Shown piece after piece: positions 45,552 to 52,698 of a DNA stretch of 64,000 nucleotides. The notes beneath the pieces were generated by a model. The model searched no databases, was not told the origin of the DNA, and saw only the letters and a list, made by a program, of their open reading frames with translations. Source of the stretch: an uncultured Desulfospira sp. (GTDB lineage Bacteria > Desulfobacterota > Desulfobacteria > Desulfobacterales > Desulfobacteraceae). The stretch spans positions 4,288,001-4,352,000 of the forward strand of contig OY760175.1 in assembly GCA_963663165.1 (NCBI GenBank), read 5' to 3'. A program made the position numbers and the translations under genes. The stretch's first letter is position 1, and each line of letters opens with the position of its first letter.

Positions 45552-46133
45552 ATGAATCAAAAATCAGACCATATTCGTGCGTTTATCGCCATCTCACCCC
45601 CCGGGCATGTGAAAAAGGTGCTCAAGGACCTTCAGGCCATGCTTAAAAAGGCGGGGATTCATGGCGCTTATCCCCGGCTGGACACCCTTCACCTTACCCT
45701 GAAATTCCTGGGCGACGTTCCGGTTGGTTCGGTTGGTTTAATTCAGAAGAGCATGGAAACGGCGGCCCGGGATCTTTCCGGATTTGAACTGACCGCCGGC
45801 GGCATCGGCGTCTTTCCCACAGTCAAGAATGCCCGGGTGATCTGGGGCGGGACAGGGGGGCGGACTGACCTGCTGGAGCTGCTTTTTTCCAGGCTTGATA
45901 ATGCGCTTTCTTCGGCAATGGGATTACAAAAAGAAACCCGGCGGTTCGCTGCCCATTTTACCCTGGCCAGGGTCAAGCAAAGGGTTGACCCTAAAATTCT
46001 GGTTCAGTTGATGCAGGATGGCAGAGGTATCCGGTCCGAACCTTTCAAAGTTAATAAATTGTCTCTTTATCAAAGCCGGCTGACCCGGTCCGGTGCGGTT
46101 TACACAGAGTTGTTTAAGGTGAATTTAGAATAG
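45552..46133 (+). CDS. thpR: RNA 2',3'-cyclic phosphodiesterase
   Basis: Two HxT motifs (LHLTLKFLG, AHFTLAR) and S.LT..GAVY. Confidence 0.92.
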   Translation: MNQKSDHIRAFIAISPPGHVKKVLKDLQAMLKKAGIHGAYPRLDTLHLTLKFLGDVPVGSVGLIQKSMETAARDLSGFELTAGGIGVFPTVKNARVIWGGTGGRTDLLELLFSRLDNALSSAMGLQKETRRFAAHFTLARVKQRVDPKILVQLMQDGRGIRSEPFKVNKLSLYQSRLTRSGAVYTELFKVNLE

Positions 46134-46170
46134 TCTATTCCGGGGTGGTAAGGATAATAATGTATAAAAT

Positions 46171-46254
46171 TGGGACTTGGGATATGGGATATGGGACTTG
46201 GGTAGGCCGTGGATACTGCAATCCCCAAGTCCCATATCCCAAGTCCCAAGTCCA
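46171..46254. repeat. Inverted pair of heptamer tandem arrays (TGGGACT/TGGGATA)n
   Basis: About 4.5 units at 46171-46202 and their reverse complement at 46224-46254. Confidence 0.8.
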
Positions 46255-46448
46255 TTATTTTGGAGTTATGTTGCGAGCGGTCCTGAAGCCTTGATTGACG
46301 GTGGTTTGGGCGCCGTAATGCCGTAAGTCAAAATCGTTCAAATAAACAGTGGGTTATCAAGGGTATGACAAATTTGCAACAAATCACTAAACATAATAAA
46401 CAGCTACAGTTTGCCCTGAGGAGTGCTGGTGATGAAGTCTGTAAGGAT

Positions 46449-47468
46449 CTATAGACTATCCAGCCACTCAAGAACGTTTTGCTTGTTTTCCCACTGGATC
46501 AACTCCTCAATCTTCGGATCAGATTTCAGGTGCTGTTTGGTGAACTGGATGAAGTTCTCTTGTAAATGTCGCTTCTGGCCTAGATCAAGCTTTAAGTAAA
46601 CCATTGTGGATTTGACATTAGAATGCCCCAAGCGATTCTTAATTTCAGATAAAGGCCGATCCTCTGAGAGCATTCGAACGGCACACGAATGACGGAAGCT
46701 ATGGACGGGGTGCATGGTCGCTGTCCGCTTTGCCGGTAAAGCCTGTTCAAGGTAGTTTTTACAGATCCGGTTGATACCGTGGCGGGTCAAGCTTGTTCCT
46801 CTTTGGTTGATGAACAGCCTTTTTTTAAACGGATGGATTGGCGTATTGCGATGTTCTTCAATATACTGATGCATAAGCTCTACTGTTTTCCCAAGCAACT
46901 GAACTTGTCGATATCGGTTACCCTTCCCAAGAATCGCCAGAGTTTGATTTTCATAATCAAAATAATCCATCTCAAGGGTAGCGATTTCCGTTGCCCTGGC
47001 ACCGGTATCATATAATAGATACAGAAGGGTATAATCTCGGAACCCGTCCTTTCTTTTAAGTTGGACCGCATTAAGGATTTGATTGATCTCCTGGGGATAC
47101 AAAAATCCGATCAACTTGTGTTGGCTTCGTTTCCGGGGAATATCAAGGATCGCATTGGTCAGTTTTTGTTGCTCGGGATAAATAAAACGGATCATTTTGG
47201 CAAAAGACTTTAAAACGGCCAGGCGCTGGTTCCGGGTTTTAGCCGTGTTGGACCGTTTGGATTCAAGCTCATTGAGAAACTGCAAAATTAATTCTACCGT
47301 GATATGTTCCAGATTGAGCGAACTGACCTTTACGCTGTGGTACTCGGCAGCAAACGGTAAAAAAAAGCGCATGGTATCCCGGTAACTTTTGATCGTATTG
47401 GGGCGGCACCCTTTGACATAAGGCAGGTATTGGTCAAAAAATTGAACAACGCAACGGGTCAGGTTCAT
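46449..47468 (-). CDS. Tyrosine recombinase RitC
   Basis: TIKSYRD, TRNQRLA, TGARATE, GKG, HSFRHS, LGH, TMVY. Confidence 0.9.
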   Translation of the reverse strand: MNLTRCVVQFFDQYLPYVKGCRPNTIKSYRDTMRFFLPFAAEYHSVKVSSLNLEHITVELILQFLNELESKRSNTAKTRNQRLAVLKSFAKMIRFIYPEQQKLTNAILDIPRKRSQHKLIGFLYPQEINQILNAVQLKRKDGFRDYTLLYLLYDTGARATEIATLEMDYFDYENQTLAILGKGNRYRQVQLLGKTVELMHQYIEEHRNTPIHPFKKRLFINQRGTSLTRHGINRICKNYLEQALPAKRTATMHPVHSFRHSCAVRMLSEDRPLSEIKNRLGHSNVKSTMVYLKLDLGQKRHLQENFIQFTKQHLKSDPKIEELIQWENKQNVLEWLDSL

Positions 47469-48439
47469 GATTCATCCCTTCTGCCGGTGGTAAATTTGAA
47501 CAGGCTGTCGCGGCTTTCAGCATCAACTGCTTTCAAATATTCCATGGTGTATTTATACTCAACATGACCCATATAGCCGGCAAGCACCGGCAGCACATTC
47601 CGGGGTGATTGTTTCCGGGCAATGGCTGCCTTCAAGGTGTTAATGGCAAAAGAGTGCCGTAAACAGTGCGGAGTGGGCTTCCCAAAGGTCGTGTCGCCGA
47701 TAATTTTCCTTGGGCGGCGGATCCCGATTTGACGCACAGCATCGTGAAAAACAGAGCGAATACGGTTATCGTTCAAGCCGTTTTCCCCTATCCCCATGAA
47801 CAGGTAGGGATTCATATCGTTTTCAATTAAAGCGGCCCTGGTTAAAAGATAGTTGTCAATCTGCATGGCAGTTGATTTTGGAATAGGGATAAGACGGTCC
47901 TTTTTGAACTTGGTTTTCTCTATGTAAATCGTCTTTTCATCCGGCCGGTAATTTTTCAATCTCAGGCGCAAGGGTTCATTCATCCTCAGCCCACAGCGGG
48001 CAAGCAGAAGGATCACCAGATATTCACTGTAATCTTTAAGGAACCGCATAGGGGTTTGCCGGATCCGTCCGCATACCACCCCCAGTAACATTTCTACCTG
48101 CTCCGGTGAGAATATAAAGGGGATGAAGGTGCGTCGGGCCGGAGCGGTCACATCTTTCAAAGGGTTATCAAGATTTATCCGCTGCCGTTTCAGATAATCA
48201 AAAAAGCCTCGAACTACATTTAGAATGCTGGCTACGCCGGAGGGCTCAAGGCCAATCTCATTTTTAAAGGTGATATAAAAATGGGGCATCCAAATGTCTG
48301 AGAGATCCGGCTGCCTCATTAAAAAATCGTCAAAGGTAAGCAAGGCCCACCGGAGCATATGGCAACTGTATCCCAGTCCTTGCCGGTAAACAATAAAGTT
48401 TTCCATCTCTGTGGCCAAAAAGCTTTTAAACGGTTTCAT
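47465..48439 (-). CDS. Tyrosine recombinase RitB
   Basis: PFIFS, CGLRMNE, KTKF.K.R, HCLRHSFA, LPVLAGYMGH..Y. Confidence 0.9.
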   Translation of the reverse strand: MKPFKSFLATEMENFIVYRQGLGYSCHMLRWALLTFDDFLMRQPDLSDIWMPHFYITFKNEIGLEPSGVASILNVVRGFFDYLKRQRINLDNPLKDVTAPARRTFIPFIFSPEQVEMLLGVVCGRIRQTPMRFLKDYSEYLVILLLARCGLRMNEPLRLRLKNYRPDEKTIYIEKTKFKKDRLIPIPKSTAMQIDNYLLTRAALIENDMNPYLFMGIGENGLNDNRIRSVFHDAVRQIGIRRPRKIIGDTTFGKPTPHCLRHSFAINTLKAAIARKQSPRNVLPVLAGYMGHVEYKYTMEYLKAVDAESRDSLFKFTTGRRDES

Positions 48440-49343
48440 CGAACAACACCCGGCGCATCAATTCCTTGTGGATACTTAGATATACTTTTGTGGAATCAAT
48501 GATGGAATGCCCCATCATTTCTTTGATTTCAAAAATGCCGGCACCTGCTTCCAGCATGTTTTGTGCAAAGGTGTGGCGCAGCCAATATCCTGTACCGGGA
48601 AGACCGGCAGCCCGCAACGCCTTTGTTAAATCGTGCCTGGTGAGCCAGGCACTTACAGCTCTGTAAGGTGGGCAATGGCTGGTTAAAAAAAGAGAGCGAG
48701 ACTGACTTTTAGGCCTGCCTCCAACGATATAAGCGGTGATTGCTTTGATAACTTCATCGGGAATGGGCAATTGAAGGGGCTTTGCATTTTTTGTGTTTTC
48801 CAGGTTTAGCAGTCCTTTGGCAAAACAGATATCGTCCAGAGTAAGGCGGCTGATTTCAATGGGGCGCAATCCAAGATAATAAGCCAGGTGAACCTGTGCA
48901 TAGACACGAAGCTCTTTGGATGTTGCACAGGGCAAATGATCAAATAACTGACGGACTTCACCGGGTCTTAAAAATTTAGGAGGCTTGACTTGAGCAAACA
49001 TTGGCGGACCGGTCACAAGCGGGGCTAAATTCTGTTGGATCAAATGCCGTTCATTATACAGGTAGTGCAAAAAGCCTCGAAAACAGGAACGGTATACCCC
49101 CTGGGTACTCTTTGCATATGGGGCATTGAACCTTGCCAGAAAATCATCAACATGCCCTATGTTTATATTGACCAGTGAGACTCCCGATGTTTGCAGATAA
49201 CTGTCAAACGCTTTGATAATTTTGGTCCTGCAACAGGTTTGAGAAGGAGAGCTTTCCTTGATTTTAAGCATATGGTCCAGATAATCCCGGCGGATCTGAT
49301 CCAGATCATAACCGGGCGGACTTTTGGGTGTCTGCTCAACCAT
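48426..49343 (-). CDS. Tyrosine recombinase RitA (short, 305 aa)
   Basis: LGLRPIEI, K, YWLRHTFA (first His replaced), MGH, TKVY. Confidence 0.87.
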   Translation of the reverse strand: MVEQTPKSPPGYDLDQIRRDYLDHMLKIKESSPSQTCCRTKIIKAFDSYLQTSGVSLVNINIGHVDDFLARFNAPYAKSTQGVYRSCFRGFLHYLYNERHLIQQNLAPLVTGPPMFAQVKPPKFLRPGEVRQLFDHLPCATSKELRVYAQVHLAYYLGLRPIEISRLTLDDICFAKGLLNLENTKNAKPLQLPIPDEVIKAITAYIVGGRPKSQSRSLFLTSHCPPYRAVSAWLTRHDLTKALRAAGLPGTGYWLRHTFAQNMLEAGAGIFEIKEMMGHSIIDSTKVYLSIHKELMRRVLFDETV

Positions 49344-49776
49344 GATCGGCCTCCATAACCAGTTTGCTCAAAATTTTTCCAACTGATTCAGGTTGACGGC
49401 TGTTCAGGGAAGATTTTTTTTGTACAGCAGATTGTATAAGGTTGGCCGGTAAGGAAAGCACCTGGTAAATGGTGCCGTCAAAGGCAATCAGATCATTTTC
49501 CATCAATCCATCCCGAGCTTCAATGTACTGGTCCAGTTGCATTTTTAGCAGGGTGCATATTTTATCATAACTGTAAAAACTTAATCCGTTGCGGTCACCG
49601 GCCAGAACCAGGAAAAAATACAATAACAACTCGTCCCGGCTTAATGCTCGCAAAAATCCACCCGTAAGAAACCGATGGGGGATAAAACTAAATCCTCCTT
49701 TGATACAACGCACCCTTGAAGGGTTCAGGATTTCTTTTTTTACCATGCCGCGCCTCCAGTTTTTACGTTTATCCAT
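49336..49776 (-). CDS. Small putative winged-helix/HTH protein
   Basis: 146 aa; GFSFIPHRFL..GFL..LS..ELLLYFFLVLAGDRNGLSFYSYDKIC; overlaps both neighbours by 8 nt. Confidence 0.7.
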   Translation of the reverse strand: MDKRKNWRRGMVKKEILNPSRVRCIKGGFSFIPHRFLTGGFLRALSRDELLLYFFLVLAGDRNGLSFYSYDKICTLLKMQLDQYIEARDGLMENDLIAFDGTIYQVLSLPANLIQSAVQKKSSLNSRQPESVGKILSKLVMEADHG

Positions 49777-50155
49777 ATCCCCGCCGGGGAAATTGTGTGA
49801 CGACTTGACCTGAAGAGCCGCAGAACTGACAATATGGTTTGATTGGAAGGCCCTGAATCTGAAACAAAATCCACAATATTATTGTCCTACACCAAGCAGG
49901 CAGCACTGTGGAAGCTGTATCATCCATGTTTTTTGTCTCTTGAATTTTTTTTCGATGCCGACGCCGGTTCTCGGCTTCCCGATGCCGTCTTTTCCCCTTC
50001 TCGGTCTGGCGGTATCGTCGCTGTGCTTCTCTTTTGTTTCTGAGGATTCCGGCCTTACGGCAGTCCCTGCAACAATAGGCCTGCCCTCTCCAGCAGAACC
50101 TGCAAACAAAAAATACGAAATGGCACCATCGGCATGTATTTGGAATTAAAAGCAT
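49769..50155 (-). CDS. Cys-rich basic protein (putative zinc-binding nucleic-acid-binding)
   Basis: CRWC..F..CRFC.RGQAYCCRDC, Arg-rich helix, C-terminal CQFCG. Confidence 0.7.
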   Translation of the reverse strand: MLLIPNTCRWCHFVFFVCRFCWRGQAYCCRDCRKAGILRNKREAQRRYRQTEKGKRRHREAENRRRHRKKIQETKNMDDTASTVLPAWCRTIILWILFQIQGLPIKPYCQFCGSSGQVVTQFPRRGYG

Positions 50156-50433
50156 TTTAGATTTTTCCGGTATTGCAGATAACCGGAAAATGATATAGAA
50201 ATATAACTGTGTGTGTGGGCTTCTCCGGCTATCGACGGGAGTTCACAATCAAAGCCCGGAGGGGCTACTCCGGGCTTTTTCTATGCATATGATTTGGAAT
50301 TATACGAATAAAATGAAAGATTTGAAAAATCTTTTTGAATAAAAATGAATAAAACTCACAACATAATCAAACACGCTACATAATTGGAGATAATCCTTCC
50401 CCACGCAGCCGGAAATTTTTGTGAGCAGATTTT

Positions 50434-52698
50434 TCAGGAGGGCGTGATTTTTATCTGGGCAGCCCCTTTATCACGCACTTCAGTGGCGCAGAATTTTTCA
50501 ATATCGGTTTTGGTTTTTTTCTCAGCATAAGTGCTTTTCAAAACCGTCCCCTGAAATATTTTTTTCAAAATTTTTATCTCGCAGTTGCTTTTCTGGGATC
50601 TGGCCCACTCATAAAAAGAATAGATGTCCTGTTCCAGGGTTAAAATTTTCTTTTCATTATTTTTCTTTAGCAGGGCGATCTGGCTTTCCAGTTTTTTGAT
50701 TTCCAAGTCACATTTTTTTTTCTCAAGGTTATACTCTTTAATAGACTTAACCGATTCTCCCATTCTTTTTTCAAAATTTTTTATCAGTGAGATTAAATTT
50801 TTTTTATTTTCTTTGTTTATTTGTTCTTTCTTTGCATTAAACTCTTTGACCAGCAGTTGTTGTTTTTCTTTAGCGTGATCATGAAACATTTTTAACTCTA
50901 TCATTTTCTGAAAAATTTTCTTGGAACCAAATGTCAGGTCCTCTTTTTGTTTTTCCAGCTCATTGACTTCCTGCATGAGTTCATCAATTTCTCCGGATCT
51001 TATCCTGTTATACGCCAGAAGCGCGTGTTCTGACCCGGCACAAAGGGTACATGCCCCCGTGGTCTGACTTCCGGCACCGGCCAGCACAATTCCCTGCTTG
51101 GCATAAACCTTTGAAGAAATCACCCGGCATTGGTCTGAATCAACCTTCCCGGCACTGTATATGGTTGAGTCATAAATTTCATTTTGGACATGAATATTGC
51201 CGAAGGTCTGGATGTTGCAGTTGTGGATATACCTGGCGCGGATGTTGCCATGGCTTTCGATGGTGCTGTCGGTAATGCCCACATCCACATGGATATCCCC
51301 CAATACTTTGATGGTGGCCCCCCGGATTTCAATGGCCTTGATCATGCCAGCCGTCACCGGAAAAGCCCCGGTCAGAATCCCTGAAATATGCAGCTGGGCG
51401 TATGGTTCCGGAGATGCCCCGTATCGAAAGTCCATATCTTCAAGAACATGGACGGTGGGATTGATGTACAGCTTTCTGGCAATGGACACAAACAATGCCC
51501 CGCTTTTGACGGCAACGATTTTTGCGCCTTTCTCCGTAATTTTGGTCCCTGGGCCGCTCCTGAAGGTAAAGTCTTTGCCCGGGTCTTGGGTTGAGCGGGT
51601 TTTTCCAAAAATATCGGTTTTATCGTATGCCGGCGTTGTTACTTCCTCCTCAACGATAATGTCCCCTTTCTTTGCCTGGGTTGTTTTGCCCTGTTTTGTC
51701 CCCCCTATAAAAGCGGTATGTTTTGCCTTTATCAGCTCTTCCGAGCCATCCTGGTAAGCCACGGTGAATTCTTTGTCGCCTTCCTGCAAATGAACTTCAA
51801 TAATGGCATCCGGATAAATCCCTGAGGTCACTTTTTGGTCCTCAAGGCTTTGTTTAATCATGGCCAGGGTGATGGGTTCAGTGGGTTTTTCGGCTATTTT
51901 TACCCGGGCCTCCATGTTGTCCTCACTGATGGATAAGACCAGGTTTTGTTCTTTGAAAAGCGCCTTTGCGGCGGCGGCCTCTTCGTGCCGCTCCTGCTCT
52001 TCTAAAACAATGTTCATCTGATCTACGCTCAGGGTGTTCATCTTAACCATAATGGTCCCAAGGTTGTTGATGACATTGTTTTTTTCAAACGATTCGGCCT
52101 GGGCGTCCTGAGCAGATTTAACATCTTTTTGGACGGCAAATTTTTTCTCTACAACCGCTGCCGCAAACTCAAGATCCAAGGCTTTTATTTTTAAGAACTG
52201 CTCTTCGTATTCTGAAAGTTGGACCTCTTTTTTGGGCGGCTTTTCCGGGGGCTCTTTCTTGCTGATAATTTCCTCTGCCTGCTGCTCGATAAACGATTGT
52301 TCTTTTAAGATGCTGTTTTTTTGCTTTTCGGTGATGACCTCGGTTTCAACCAGGATGTCACCGATGAGTTTTTTAACTTTGGCCCGCTGGAACTCCTTTC
52401 TTTGAAACTCCAAGGCCTTATCCACCTCCTCCTGGGTGGCAAACCCTTTTTCGATGACAATTTTACCGAATGTCTCCCCTTTTTTCCGGATAATATAAAA
52501 TTCCCGGATTAAGGTAAGAAGTCCGATCTGATACCCGGTGGCAAGGCCCTGGTTGATTAGAATGGTCTCGTAGTCCTGGGGACTGTTCTTTTTAGCATTT
52601 GAAGCGTGAAGGGCCGTAATTTTTTGATATTGGCCCTTATCAATGGTTCCATATTGTAATGCCAGGTCGGCCAGGCTTGGGACAGTGGTTTCAGTCAC
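50434..52698 (-). CDS. FapA/DUF342-like protein with N-terminal GspE_N/MshEN-like repeats
   Basis: ISEDNMEA, beta-helix region (GNIRARYIHNCNI) and coiled coil; N-terminal FGKIVIEKGF / IGDILVETEVIT repeats. Confidence 0.7.
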   Translation of the reverse strand: MTETTVPSLADLALQYGTIDKGQYQKITALHASNAKKNSPQDYETILINQGLATGYQIGLLTLIREFYIIRKKGETFGKIVIEKGFATQEEVDKALEFQRKEFQRAKVKKLIGDILVETEVITEKQKNSILKEQSFIEQQAEEIISKKEPPEKPPKKEVQLSEYEEQFLKIKALDLEFAAAVVEKKFAVQKDVKSAQDAQAESFEKNNVINNLGTIMVKMNTLSVDQMNIVLEEQERHEEAAAAKALFKEQNLVLSISEDNMEARVKIAEKPTEPITLAMIKQSLEDQKVTSGIYPDAIIEVHLQEGDKEFTVAYQDGSEELIKAKHTAFIGGTKQGKTTQAKKGDIIVEEEVTTPAYDKTDIFGKTRSTQDPGKDFTFRSGPGTKITEKGAKIVAVKSGALFVSIARKLYINPTVHVLEDMDFRYGASPEPYAQLHISGILTGAFPVTAGMIKAIEIRGATIKVLGDIHVDVGITDSTIESHGNIRARYIHNCNIQTFGNIHVQNEIYDSTIYSAGKVDSDQCRVISSKVYAKQGIVLAGAGSQTTGACTLCAGSEHALLAYNRIRSGEIDELMQEVNELEKQKEDLTFGSKKIFQKMIELKMFHDHAKEKQQLLVKEFNAKKEQINKENKKNLISLIKNFEKRMGESVKSIKEYNLEKKKCDLEIKKLESQIALLKKNNEKKILTLEQDIYSFYEWARSQKSNCEIKILKKIFQGTVLKSTYAEKKTKTDIEKFCATEVRDKGAAQIKITPS

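Follow-up and report, generated by a model that had tools for sequence, protein, structure and literature searches.

Recombinase-in-trio (RIT) elements, described from Cupriavidus metallidurans CH34 and pHG1, consist of three adjacent, overlapping tyrosine-recombinase genes (PMC3414803, PMC8138268, PMC10214605, and PMC5737581; these and the other papers cited by PMC number were covered in part). A 64,000-nucleotide stretch of an uncultured Desulfospira sp. genome (contig OY760175.1, positions 4,288,001 to 4,352,000; referred to below as the window) carries an element of this type in which two further small genes precede the trio, raising the question of what such genes do inside a recombinase element. 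We found that the two genes form a cassette that also heads elements of other kinds and that direct repeats at the element's left end change with the protein encoded in the second position. Tentatively, we read the cassette as a feedback control that may travel between elements.

The two-slot cassette and its left-end signals

The element, RIT1, comprises five co-oriented minus-strand open reading frames (ORFs) of 128, 146, 305, 324, and 339 amino acids (aa), with successive overlaps of 8, 8, 14, and 4 bp:

46266-50383, minus strand: whole RIT1 element, five genes, 4118 bp, with the same ends across 8 copies
49769-50155, minus strand: orf128, slot 1 (type ZnA), eight-cysteine zinc-finger protein with a long basic helix; structure model at pLDDT 82
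49336-49746 (open frame to 49776), minus strand: orf146, slot 2, a winged helix that stands alone, probably 136 aa; structure model at pLDDT 60
48426-49343, minus strand: ritA, 305 aa, R160 / YWLRH / H279 / Y288, without roughly 90 to 110 extra N-terminal residues of most relatives
47465-48439, minus strand: ritB, 324 aa, R152 / H258-x-x-R261 / H292 / Y301, Phage_integrase match
46449-47468, minus strand: ritC, 339 aa, full R-H-R-H-Y set, Phage_integrase match

The genome, a single contig of 6.74 Mb, contains 8 full copies of this five-gene element. All 8 align over the same 4118 bp with 0 to 6 differences and share both ends, 46266 and 50383, exactly where a first-pass annotation of the sequence had placed them. 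That annotation had also raised the case of copies ending between the small genes and ritA; on checking, orf128 and orf146 were present in all 8. RIT1 is a recently multiplied, RIT-type element. The five consecutively overlapping genes reported earlier are all there, with overlaps as called, but orf128 and orf146 are probably separated by a 22-bp gap: orf146 probably starts at its second Met, because its homologues are 136 aa long and a GGAGG lies directly upstream, giving a protein of 136 aa.

The eight cysteines of orf128 (C8, C11, C18, C21, C28, C32, C109, and C112) are invariant among 48 sequences. A fold search with ZnA returned no match above Z 3.1 (YacG, FCS finger), too weak for a name. 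ZnA and a second slot-1 type, ZnB, align weakly (probability 52%); a third type, ZnC, is unrelated by the same test and has no DUF6431 match, and a fourth has a DUF6431 match under the cut-off. The orf146 model gave many winged helix-turn-helix (wHTH) matches at Z 7 to 9, with RepA_N among the tied best. The comparison with Rep and wHTH folds proposed in the first-pass annotation thus identified orf146 as a winged helix, although its RepA_N rows tie with transcription factors, and found no named fold for orf128. The HTH_36 match of orf146 stayed under the cut-off (E 0.007), and the wHTH profile had no match among solved structures. For both small proteins, we found no NCBIfam match, sub-threshold Pfam and PHROG rows only, and no phage match. 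The wHTH protein nearly always stands alone, its family comprising 7342 clusters of normal length and 15 longer ones. CHC2, a primase-type zinc ribbon found in the same slot of other elements, matches Zn_ribbon_DnaG above the cut-off. In both orf128 and orf146, variation is greatest at third codon positions.

Within this genome, all homologues of the two small proteins lie inside multicopy elements:

RIT1, 8 copies: ZnA, wHTH, trio
RIT2, 4 copies: ZnC, wHTH, trio
RIT3, 4 copies: ZnB, CHC2, trio
IS21 element (L001), 5 copies: ZnA, wHTH, ParB-like, IstA, IstB
Mu-like element, 6 copies: ZnA, CHC2, a 184-aa gene, DDE-like protein, AAA ATPase; a second family carries ZnB

The cassette therefore consists of a slot-1 zinc-finger protein of one of four types followed by a slot-2 protein, either wHTH or CHC2, and it heads three kinds of core: the RIT trio, IS21, and a Mu-like element whose DDE label was judged by eye from motifs and from its TG..CA ends, Pfam giving no name. 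The link between such gene pairs and IS21-like transposases, part of the original idea, holds, and the cassette additionally heads the Mu-like DDE family. Relatives of both small genes lie directly ahead of istA in many IS21 elements, including one in Caballeronia; the window element differs from IS21 (IstA plus IstB) in having no DDE transposase or ATPase inside its ends, whereas the sister IS21 element L001 has both.

A wHTH profile search of genome contigs returned 366 relatives, of which the best 80 were kept. Among these best 80 of 366, a slot-1 gene stands upstream in 78, the other two being near a contig edge, and wHTH is followed by ritA in 68 cases, by istA in 10, and once each by parB and by a fused recombinase. 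This neighborhood check, which the first-pass annotation had suggested, linked the small genes to RIT trios elsewhere too. More distant wHTH genes occur in 21 of 301 genomes of the phylum and are mostly IS21-linked; one such IS21-linked case is on a Caballeronia plasmid. Along the wHTH tree we counted 6 changes of core label, of which starred branches force 3; the cassette has therefore been swapped between cores repeatedly. Neither accessory genes in RITs nor this two-gene cassette was found described in the literature searched (titles and abstract openings), and the portion of PMC11208146 covered here describes no accessory genes in IS21.

Several other arrangements came up in these searches. 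In Caballeronia (L127:423-5373), a cassette-bearing IS21 directly follows a four-gene integrase cluster of GInt/SE-like look. Loci L250 to L265 are IS21-like elements ordered Zn finger, ParB, IstA, IstB, with CHC2 at the far end, and most of these longer CHC2 forms come without an ACCCCGC cluster. Ordinary RITs sit inside istA or istB of IS21 at L129, L152, L158, and L162, one of these IS21 elements being cassette-bearing, which suggests a possible route of cassette capture by a RIT; L129 was rejected as a cassette RIT, being an ordinary RIT within istA. Rare in-frame fusions join wHTH to RitA, to the IstA start, or to another tyrosine recombinase (L196:1970-3562, P0405, P0395, and P0402). In RIT2, at L003 (G000:C1:6731797-6736511), a 141-aa gene on the opposite strand, which we take to have a SEC-C-like, TPR-like look, lies between the left end and ZnC, and similar sequence is found ahead of other ZnC genes.

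Upstream of orf128, the left end holds two predicted signals:

50297-50353, minus strand: four HWWATTC repeats on the same strand (50347-50353, 50337-50343, 50306-50312, and 50297-50303), predicted orf146 sites, in a stretch of 19% GC
50299-50326, minus strand: predicted operon promoter TTCAAA-16-TATAAT, a consensus match only, its -10 overlapping repeat 4

The repeats lie at element positions 31, 41, 72, and 81; four were reached by 9 of 2000 shuffles, and none occur at the right end. The TATAATTC of the predicted operon promoter is kept in close relatives. Unguided counts of 6-mers on one strand gave ACCCCG 24 times against 1.3 expected (reverse 0), TAATTC 145 times against 21 (reverse 9), and TTCTTC 46 times against 6. 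Sorted by locus, ACCCCG/CCCCGC was present in two or more copies in 8 of 8 CHC2 loci (L006 was omitted because its left end is replaced by another element), TAATTC in 47 of 69 wHTH-RITs, and TTCTTC in 12 of 24 wHTH-IS21 elements. Mean WYCCCGC counts in CHC2 carriers were 3.25 for Mu-like elements (n = 4) and 3.4 for RITs (n = 5), compared with 0 to 0.9 in wHTH carriers. In the starred wHTH clade of 72 rows, HWWATTC averaged 3.6 in RITs (n = 65) and 4.25 in IS21 (n = 8); outside this clade it fell below 1, and TTYCTTY averaged 2.2 in RITs (n = 6) and 3.6 in IS21 (n = 11). Flanks and the opposite strand, used as controls, gave means below 1 in most groups.

A fresh CHC2 set of 30 loci gave the same picture. 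After setting aside 5 duplicates, 4 loci with short upstream sequence, and 5 with CHC2 behind istB (0 to 1 copies within 1.3 kb), we found 3 to 6 ACCCCGC copies in 14 of the 16 new loci with at least 800 bp upstream, which carried slot-1 types ZnA, ZnB, and DUF6431-like. Four further loci of this kind had 3 to 4 copies, and at L263 the cluster is at the left end, 3.1 kb from a CHC2 gene behind istB. Plain linkage of repeat and protein is unlikely because the pairing spans the slot-1 gene and, at L263, 3.1 kb. We rejected the repeats as recombinase or transposase sites, since they occur at the left end only and are independent of the core.

The direct repeat sequence thus tracks the slot-2 protein and not the recombinase or transposase, an association that we found in no paper. 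We infer that slot 2 encodes a sequence-specific binder of the left-end repeats; that it pairs with them in some way, which three of the readings weighed below have in common, is quite probable. The cassette shows unrelated mobile elements trading two proteins as one module along with the DNA signals that match them. The three repeat-protein pairs offer a ready specificity swap, both for a protein family that has no name and counts more than 7000 clusters and for a primase zinc ribbon that stands alone and would be a sequence-specific binder.

A second signal goes with slot 1. Upstream of ZnA lies a conserved leader of 130 nt, found in RIT, IS21, and Mu-like hosts alike, in which we predict the following:

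50207-50285, plus strand: predicted antisense RNA of ~75 nt, folding into two stem-loops, of which the latter (about 50250-50282) would be an intrinsic terminator; fold z -4.6
50173-50201, plus strand: predicted antisense promoter TTGCAG (50173-50178), 17 bp, TAGAAA (50196-50201); a pattern in the leaders
50163-50233, minus strand: predicted mRNA switch in which segment B (50178-50190) pairs with A (50221-50233) or C (50163-50173); alternative folds

A leader profile hit before 15 of 17 held-out ZnA genes and before 0 of 76 ZnB genes; three of the ZnA genes are the window copy itself or nearly duplicate rows used in training, and both misses are degenerate genes of one genome. The leader therefore tracks slot-1 type ZnA, an association that we likewise found in no paper. 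Pairing in the terminator stem reaches 98.5% across 25 leaders, and compensatory changes occur at 5 of its 11 pairs, exceeding all 500 shuffles and all slid controls, although these counts are inflated by relatedness. Its 4 mismatches are A-C on the gene strand and therefore G-U on the antisense strand only, where a U run follows the terminator hairpin. TTGC..17 bp..TA is present in 22 of 25 leaders, and GCAA is invariant in the leader alignment. The two switch folds have energies within a few kcal/mol of each other in most of the 25 leaders, the B-C stem shows 29 G-U versus 10 A-C cells, and segment C holds the ribosome site (GGAGG) in most relatives. No Rfam family matched the leader at gathering score, making it a candidate small-RNA family outside Rfam.

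The recombinase trio, its ends, and its landing places

RitA, RitB, and RitC all match Phage_integrase above the cut-off, and the predicted catalytic set R..H-x-x-R..H..Y can be assigned in all three, Tyr replacing the first His in RitA. The first-pass annotation had singled out a short RitA with YWLRH. Both traits are present, and YxLRH marks the class: it is found in 99 of 99 clade RitA proteins (YWLRH in 93), versus His in 12 of 13 other RitA-like proteins. Shortness was rejected as a mark of the five-gene class, since clade RitA ORFs range from ~295 to 463 aa and most are 380 to 420 aa. The window RitA has a single weak SAM-like match and so differs from the described RitA with two core-binding domains (PMC8138268).

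A FastTree of 117 RitB sequences placed 97 on one branch (support 100), comprising 91 cassette-bearing rows, 6 too short to judge, and none that is cassette-free. All 16 cassette-free RITs fall outside this 97-row branch, and an earlier IQ-TREE quick tree agrees. The stem of the branch measures 1.6 changes per column in FastTree and 1.6 to 2.4 across quick and FastTree, midpoint-rooted trees. A search with RitB only had hits in 36 of 401 genomes of the class, from which 57 regions were fetched, omitting the source genome and repeat copies. Of the 57 RitA rows, 10 were excluded (less than 900 bp upstream); the 47 with at least 900 bp upstream included 42 with both slots, 4 with slot 2 only, 1 with slot 1 and a wHTH-RitA fusion, and 0 with neither. 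Trios retain the cassette down to about 41% RitB identity. When the whole phylum was searched with a RitB profile, most hits were Xer-like proteins, and strong hits alone were fetched (13 regions). The deep RitB clade supports a distinct RIT subclass, as the first-pass annotation had proposed: it has a long stem and no cassette-free row, and trios found by RitB alone retain the cassette.

With described RITs, RIT1 shares the order ritA-ritB-ritC, the catalytic sets, terminal inverted repeats, and a presence in several copies per genome. It differs in size and content (4.0 to 5.0 kb with five genes in the window class versus about 3.5 kb with three), in the two extra genes, repeats, and leader inside its left end, in a RitB that is ~24% identical on a long separate branch, and in a RitA with YxLRH that, in the window subgroup, is ~100 residues shorter. 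Gene overlaps in the window trio are 14 and 4 bp, against 4 to 8 bp in PMC3414803. The described terminal inverted repeats are 28 to 34 bp, and the exact window repeat is ~10 bp, doubled at one end. The working is RIT-like, but size, gene number, and RitA length depart from the described form; we therefore file the element as a RIT variant and not as a plain member. With SE, GInt, and Tn554 elements, it shares several tyrosine recombinases and a target preference and, judging by two informative copies, may also share a 6-bp core that splits target and element bases (PMC10214605). It differs from them in that no large recombinase, Tfp/GinC, or Srap/GinD/TnpC gene was recognized within the window ends, none lies after ritC, and the small genes are upstream and common to DDE elements.

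The ends and the landing place comprise the following features:

50357-50383, minus strand: left end, recombinase site TTATGT(A/T)G(C/T)G as two direct copies (50374-50383 and 50357-50366); site doubled also in RIT2, RIT3, and relatives
46266-46275, plus strand: right end TTATGTTGCG, which matches the end motif
46389-46396, plus strand: end motif repeated in inverted orientation (AACATAA), ~124 bp inward from the right end; sequence match
50384-50389, plus strand: crossover hexamer TTGGAG, cassette side, presumed element-borne
46260-46265, plus strand: crossover hexamer TTGGAG, ritC side, presumed target-derived
46172-46253, no strand assigned: host hairpin repeat resembling repetitive extragenic palindromes (REPs), preferred landing place, beside 6 of 8 RIT1 copies

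The motif TTATGT(A/T)GCG opens each RIT1 end, with the hexamer TTGGAG flanking. The inverted repeat consists of the 10-bp motif, doubled at the left and with an inner copy at the right; no longer repeat was listed. The inner copy stands at 123 to 128 bp in 46 distinct segments, these being all that passed a filtered scan in which misses were uncounted. Related five-gene elements measure 3991 to 5043 bp, with the exception of one 3326-bp form that has a fused recombinase frame.

TTGGAG is found on both sides of 6 RIT1 copies and at the cassette side of 7 of 8, the eighth copy adjoining another multicopy element. In one copy the ritC side reads TTGAAG and the cassette side TTGGAG, one RIT2 copy likewise has unequal hexamers, and empty REP sites finish in TTG(G/A)AG, including TTGAAG ones. 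We infer that the hexamer is the crossover core and that the target's bases are retained on the ritC side, because the TTGAAG variant stands there in one copy and empty TTGAAG REP sites exist. A 6-bp footprint with target bases on one side fits the two informative copies (RIT1 and RIT2) with unequal hexamers. Related elements supplied 39 flank pairs, of which 29 are identical and hence uninformative on which side keeps the target bases, 5 have a one-base difference, 2 are cut by contig ends, and 3 are more divergent; of these 3, one is the copy beside another element and one was apparently mis-anchored by our script. CCCTAC, the flank of one copy, was rejected as a true core, as it belongs to another element present in 7 copies. 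The hexamer sequence varies by lineage among related elements.

In run X1, positions 46260-50389 (the element with both hexamers) assembled as a separate contig. No joined-end circle was found among the contigs of 4 of the 7 listed runs, a result uninformative either way because contigs drop rare forms. Read depth in run X4 was ~1900 to 2000 on the element versus 240 to 260 on the flanks, as expected for eight copies in the chromosome and no extra ones. In 2023, RIT transposition had yet to be reproduced in the laboratory (PMC10214605). RIT1 is intact and multicopy, its ends are exact, and a crossover core and a preferred target can be named for it along with dozens of empty sites, so that mobility assays can be designed directly.

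REP-adjacent hexamers are filled at 6 of 39 sites, set against 1946 TTGGAG genome-wide, and 2 of 8 RIT1 copies lie away from REPs. At the same locus, the relative genome G600 has neither REP nor RIT, and the REP-like repeat may therefore itself be mobile. This repeat, of roughly 110 bp with GGGACTTGGGATAT arms, is found at 46136-46265 in the window and at about 60 other places.

Readings of the cassette's role

Our best reading, to which we give a probability of roughly 45%, is that the cassette may serve as a portable feedback control of transposition. The trio would join both ends into a circle with one hexamer and insert this circle where the target has the same hexamer; the six target bases would then stay on the ritC side, as is described for SE and Tn554 elements. 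A single promoter would drive all five genes. Binding of orf146 to its matching repeats over the left-end operon promoter would repress it, and the antisense RNA would shut off orf128 translation; both controls would rise with copy number and throttle the recombinases via translational coupling. The role of the zinc-finger protein is the weakest step; our guess is that it partners with or antagonizes the slot-2 protein. Feedback control needs nothing from the core and therefore explains how the same cassette fits any core, and the overlap of repeat 4 with the predicted -10 was counted in its favor. The leader layout likewise counts in its favor, since in pSK41 an antisense RNA is described as inducing a stem that covers the ribosome site (PMC5703833). 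For IS10, IS200, and ISPpu9, the last of which sits in REP sequences, transposase output is described as limited by a cis antisense RNA together with structure in the 5' leader. In those systems the RNA acts on the transposase gene, whereas the RNA predicted here accompanies an accessory gene that can be exchanged, in front of three kinds of core. Among the roles that the first-pass annotation had offered for the accessory pair, regulation is favored by the repeats and leader, replication and directionality are retained as candidates, and targeting found no support.

Several observations weigh against feedback control. A primase-type zinc ribbon such as CHC2 would be an odd repressor, and one-strand repeats by an AT-rich stretch would fit an origin or Xis-like sites as well. 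The promoter scan total of 10 is not clearly above chance (shuffles 7.7 ± 2.5). When CHC2 lies behind an ATPase gene, a full repeat cluster is present in 1 of 16 loci (L263). The repeat counts come from related loci, so their independence is overstated, and the first motifs were chosen by eye. ZnB carriers, the majority, are without the leader, and the ribosome site in the window is weak (GGAAAA). Locus L184, one of the 10 excluded for short upstream sequence, has slot 1 without slot 2.

A less likely reading is that the cassette might help start copy-out replication. Slot 2 would be half an initiator acting on iteron-like repeats by the AT-rich left end and, with the zinc finger, would recruit the host primosome after single-strand exchange, the antisense RNA providing plasmid-style copy control. 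Both slot-2 options do resemble parts of replication proteins, CHC2 through its Zn_ribbon_DnaG match above the cut-off, and the best Foldseek row of wHTH is the RepA_N initiator domain 4pt7 (E 0.027), with 4pta matching over 82 residues (Z 8.2). These fold matches, however, tie with many transcription-factor winged helices, and orf146 (136 to 146 aa) lacks the C-terminal primase-binding domain of RepA_N proteins, which are ~320 aa in all. The PF13730 domain functions in the working pPR9 initiator (PMC5703833), and the window cassette resembles pSK41 RepA_N and pPR9 in combining a winged-helix protein with multiple direct boxes and with a predicted short antisense RNA of two stems that would make a stem hide the ribosome site. 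The likeness is one of layout: the window protein has no C-terminal domain, its repeats are upstream of the operon and not intragenic, and the leader precedes a zinc-finger gene. Replicative copy-out is the model for SEs (PMC10214605) and has been proposed for IS21 (PMC11208146), ParB-like genes accompany the cassette in IS21 forms, and the 19% GC left-end stretch would suit an origin. On the other hand, cassette-free RITs reach several copies per genome (PMC3414803), the depth of run X4 shows no surplus over eight chromosomal copies, and IS transposases are known under antisense control, so the RNA alone does not imply replication. We give about a quarter of the weight to the cassette as a portable copy-out starter. 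In this form, an initiator-like protein that brings its own iterons would, with a zinc-finger partner and under antisense control of the plasmid kind, recruit host replication to the left end of trios, IS21, and Mu-like elements. If true, it would be the first element-encoded replication step common to unrelated transposition chemistries and would supply a testable mechanism for RIT movement.

Somewhat less likely again is an Xis-like architectural or directionality factor. Phage Xis is a winged helix acting on direct repeats, and a wHTH on phased repeats by the left site might bend DNA for end pairing or excision. The repeats start 3 bp inside the doubled left site, at the same position in RIT2 and RIT3, and their spacing of 10, 31, and 9 bp is near helical phase; in-frame wHTH-RitA fusions (L196; P0405, 11 members) and a tandem double wHTH (P0355) also point this way. 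The fusions, though, are rare and could have arisen by accidental frameshifts at an overlap, and IstA and a Mu-like transposase, which differ in chemistry, come with the same proteins, with at least 3 core switches of wHTH. This reading also leaves the antisense leader unexplained.

Very improbable is a hitch-hiking remnant, in which the pair would be the left part of an IS21 invaded by a RIT and without a role for it: ordinary RITs do land in istA of cassette-bearing IS21 (L129) and the deepest wHTH rows are IS21-linked in a midpoint-drawn tree, but 42 of 47 trios, down to about 41% RitB identity, retain the cassette, variation in both genes is in excess at third codon positions, and the repeat sequence is re-matched at each slot-2 replacement. 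We give as little credence to a targeting module that would steer the element to REP-like hairpins, for although one lies beside 6 of 8 copies, 2 of 8 are not at REPs, near relatives with the same cassette use other hexamers, and the IS21 element with the same pair has varied flanks with short target duplications.

Host flanks and individual copies

The host genes flanking the window copy (45552-46133 and 50434-52698) encode a LigT-like 2',3'-phosphoesterase and a FapA-domain protein, and they converge on the insertion site. At L007 (G000:C1:5572659-5573300), RIT1 splits a gene start behind another gene, its other side adjoining the 7-copy element; the split gene we presume, from motifs, to encode a PIN-type toxin and the gene ahead an antitoxin-like protein. 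At L019, L169, and L195, two cassette RITs lie adjacent, head to head. Recombinase genes are fused via internal deletion at L031 and L211 (RitA-RitC, 682 aa, and RitA-RitB, 636 aa, respectively), and L031 retains both ends.

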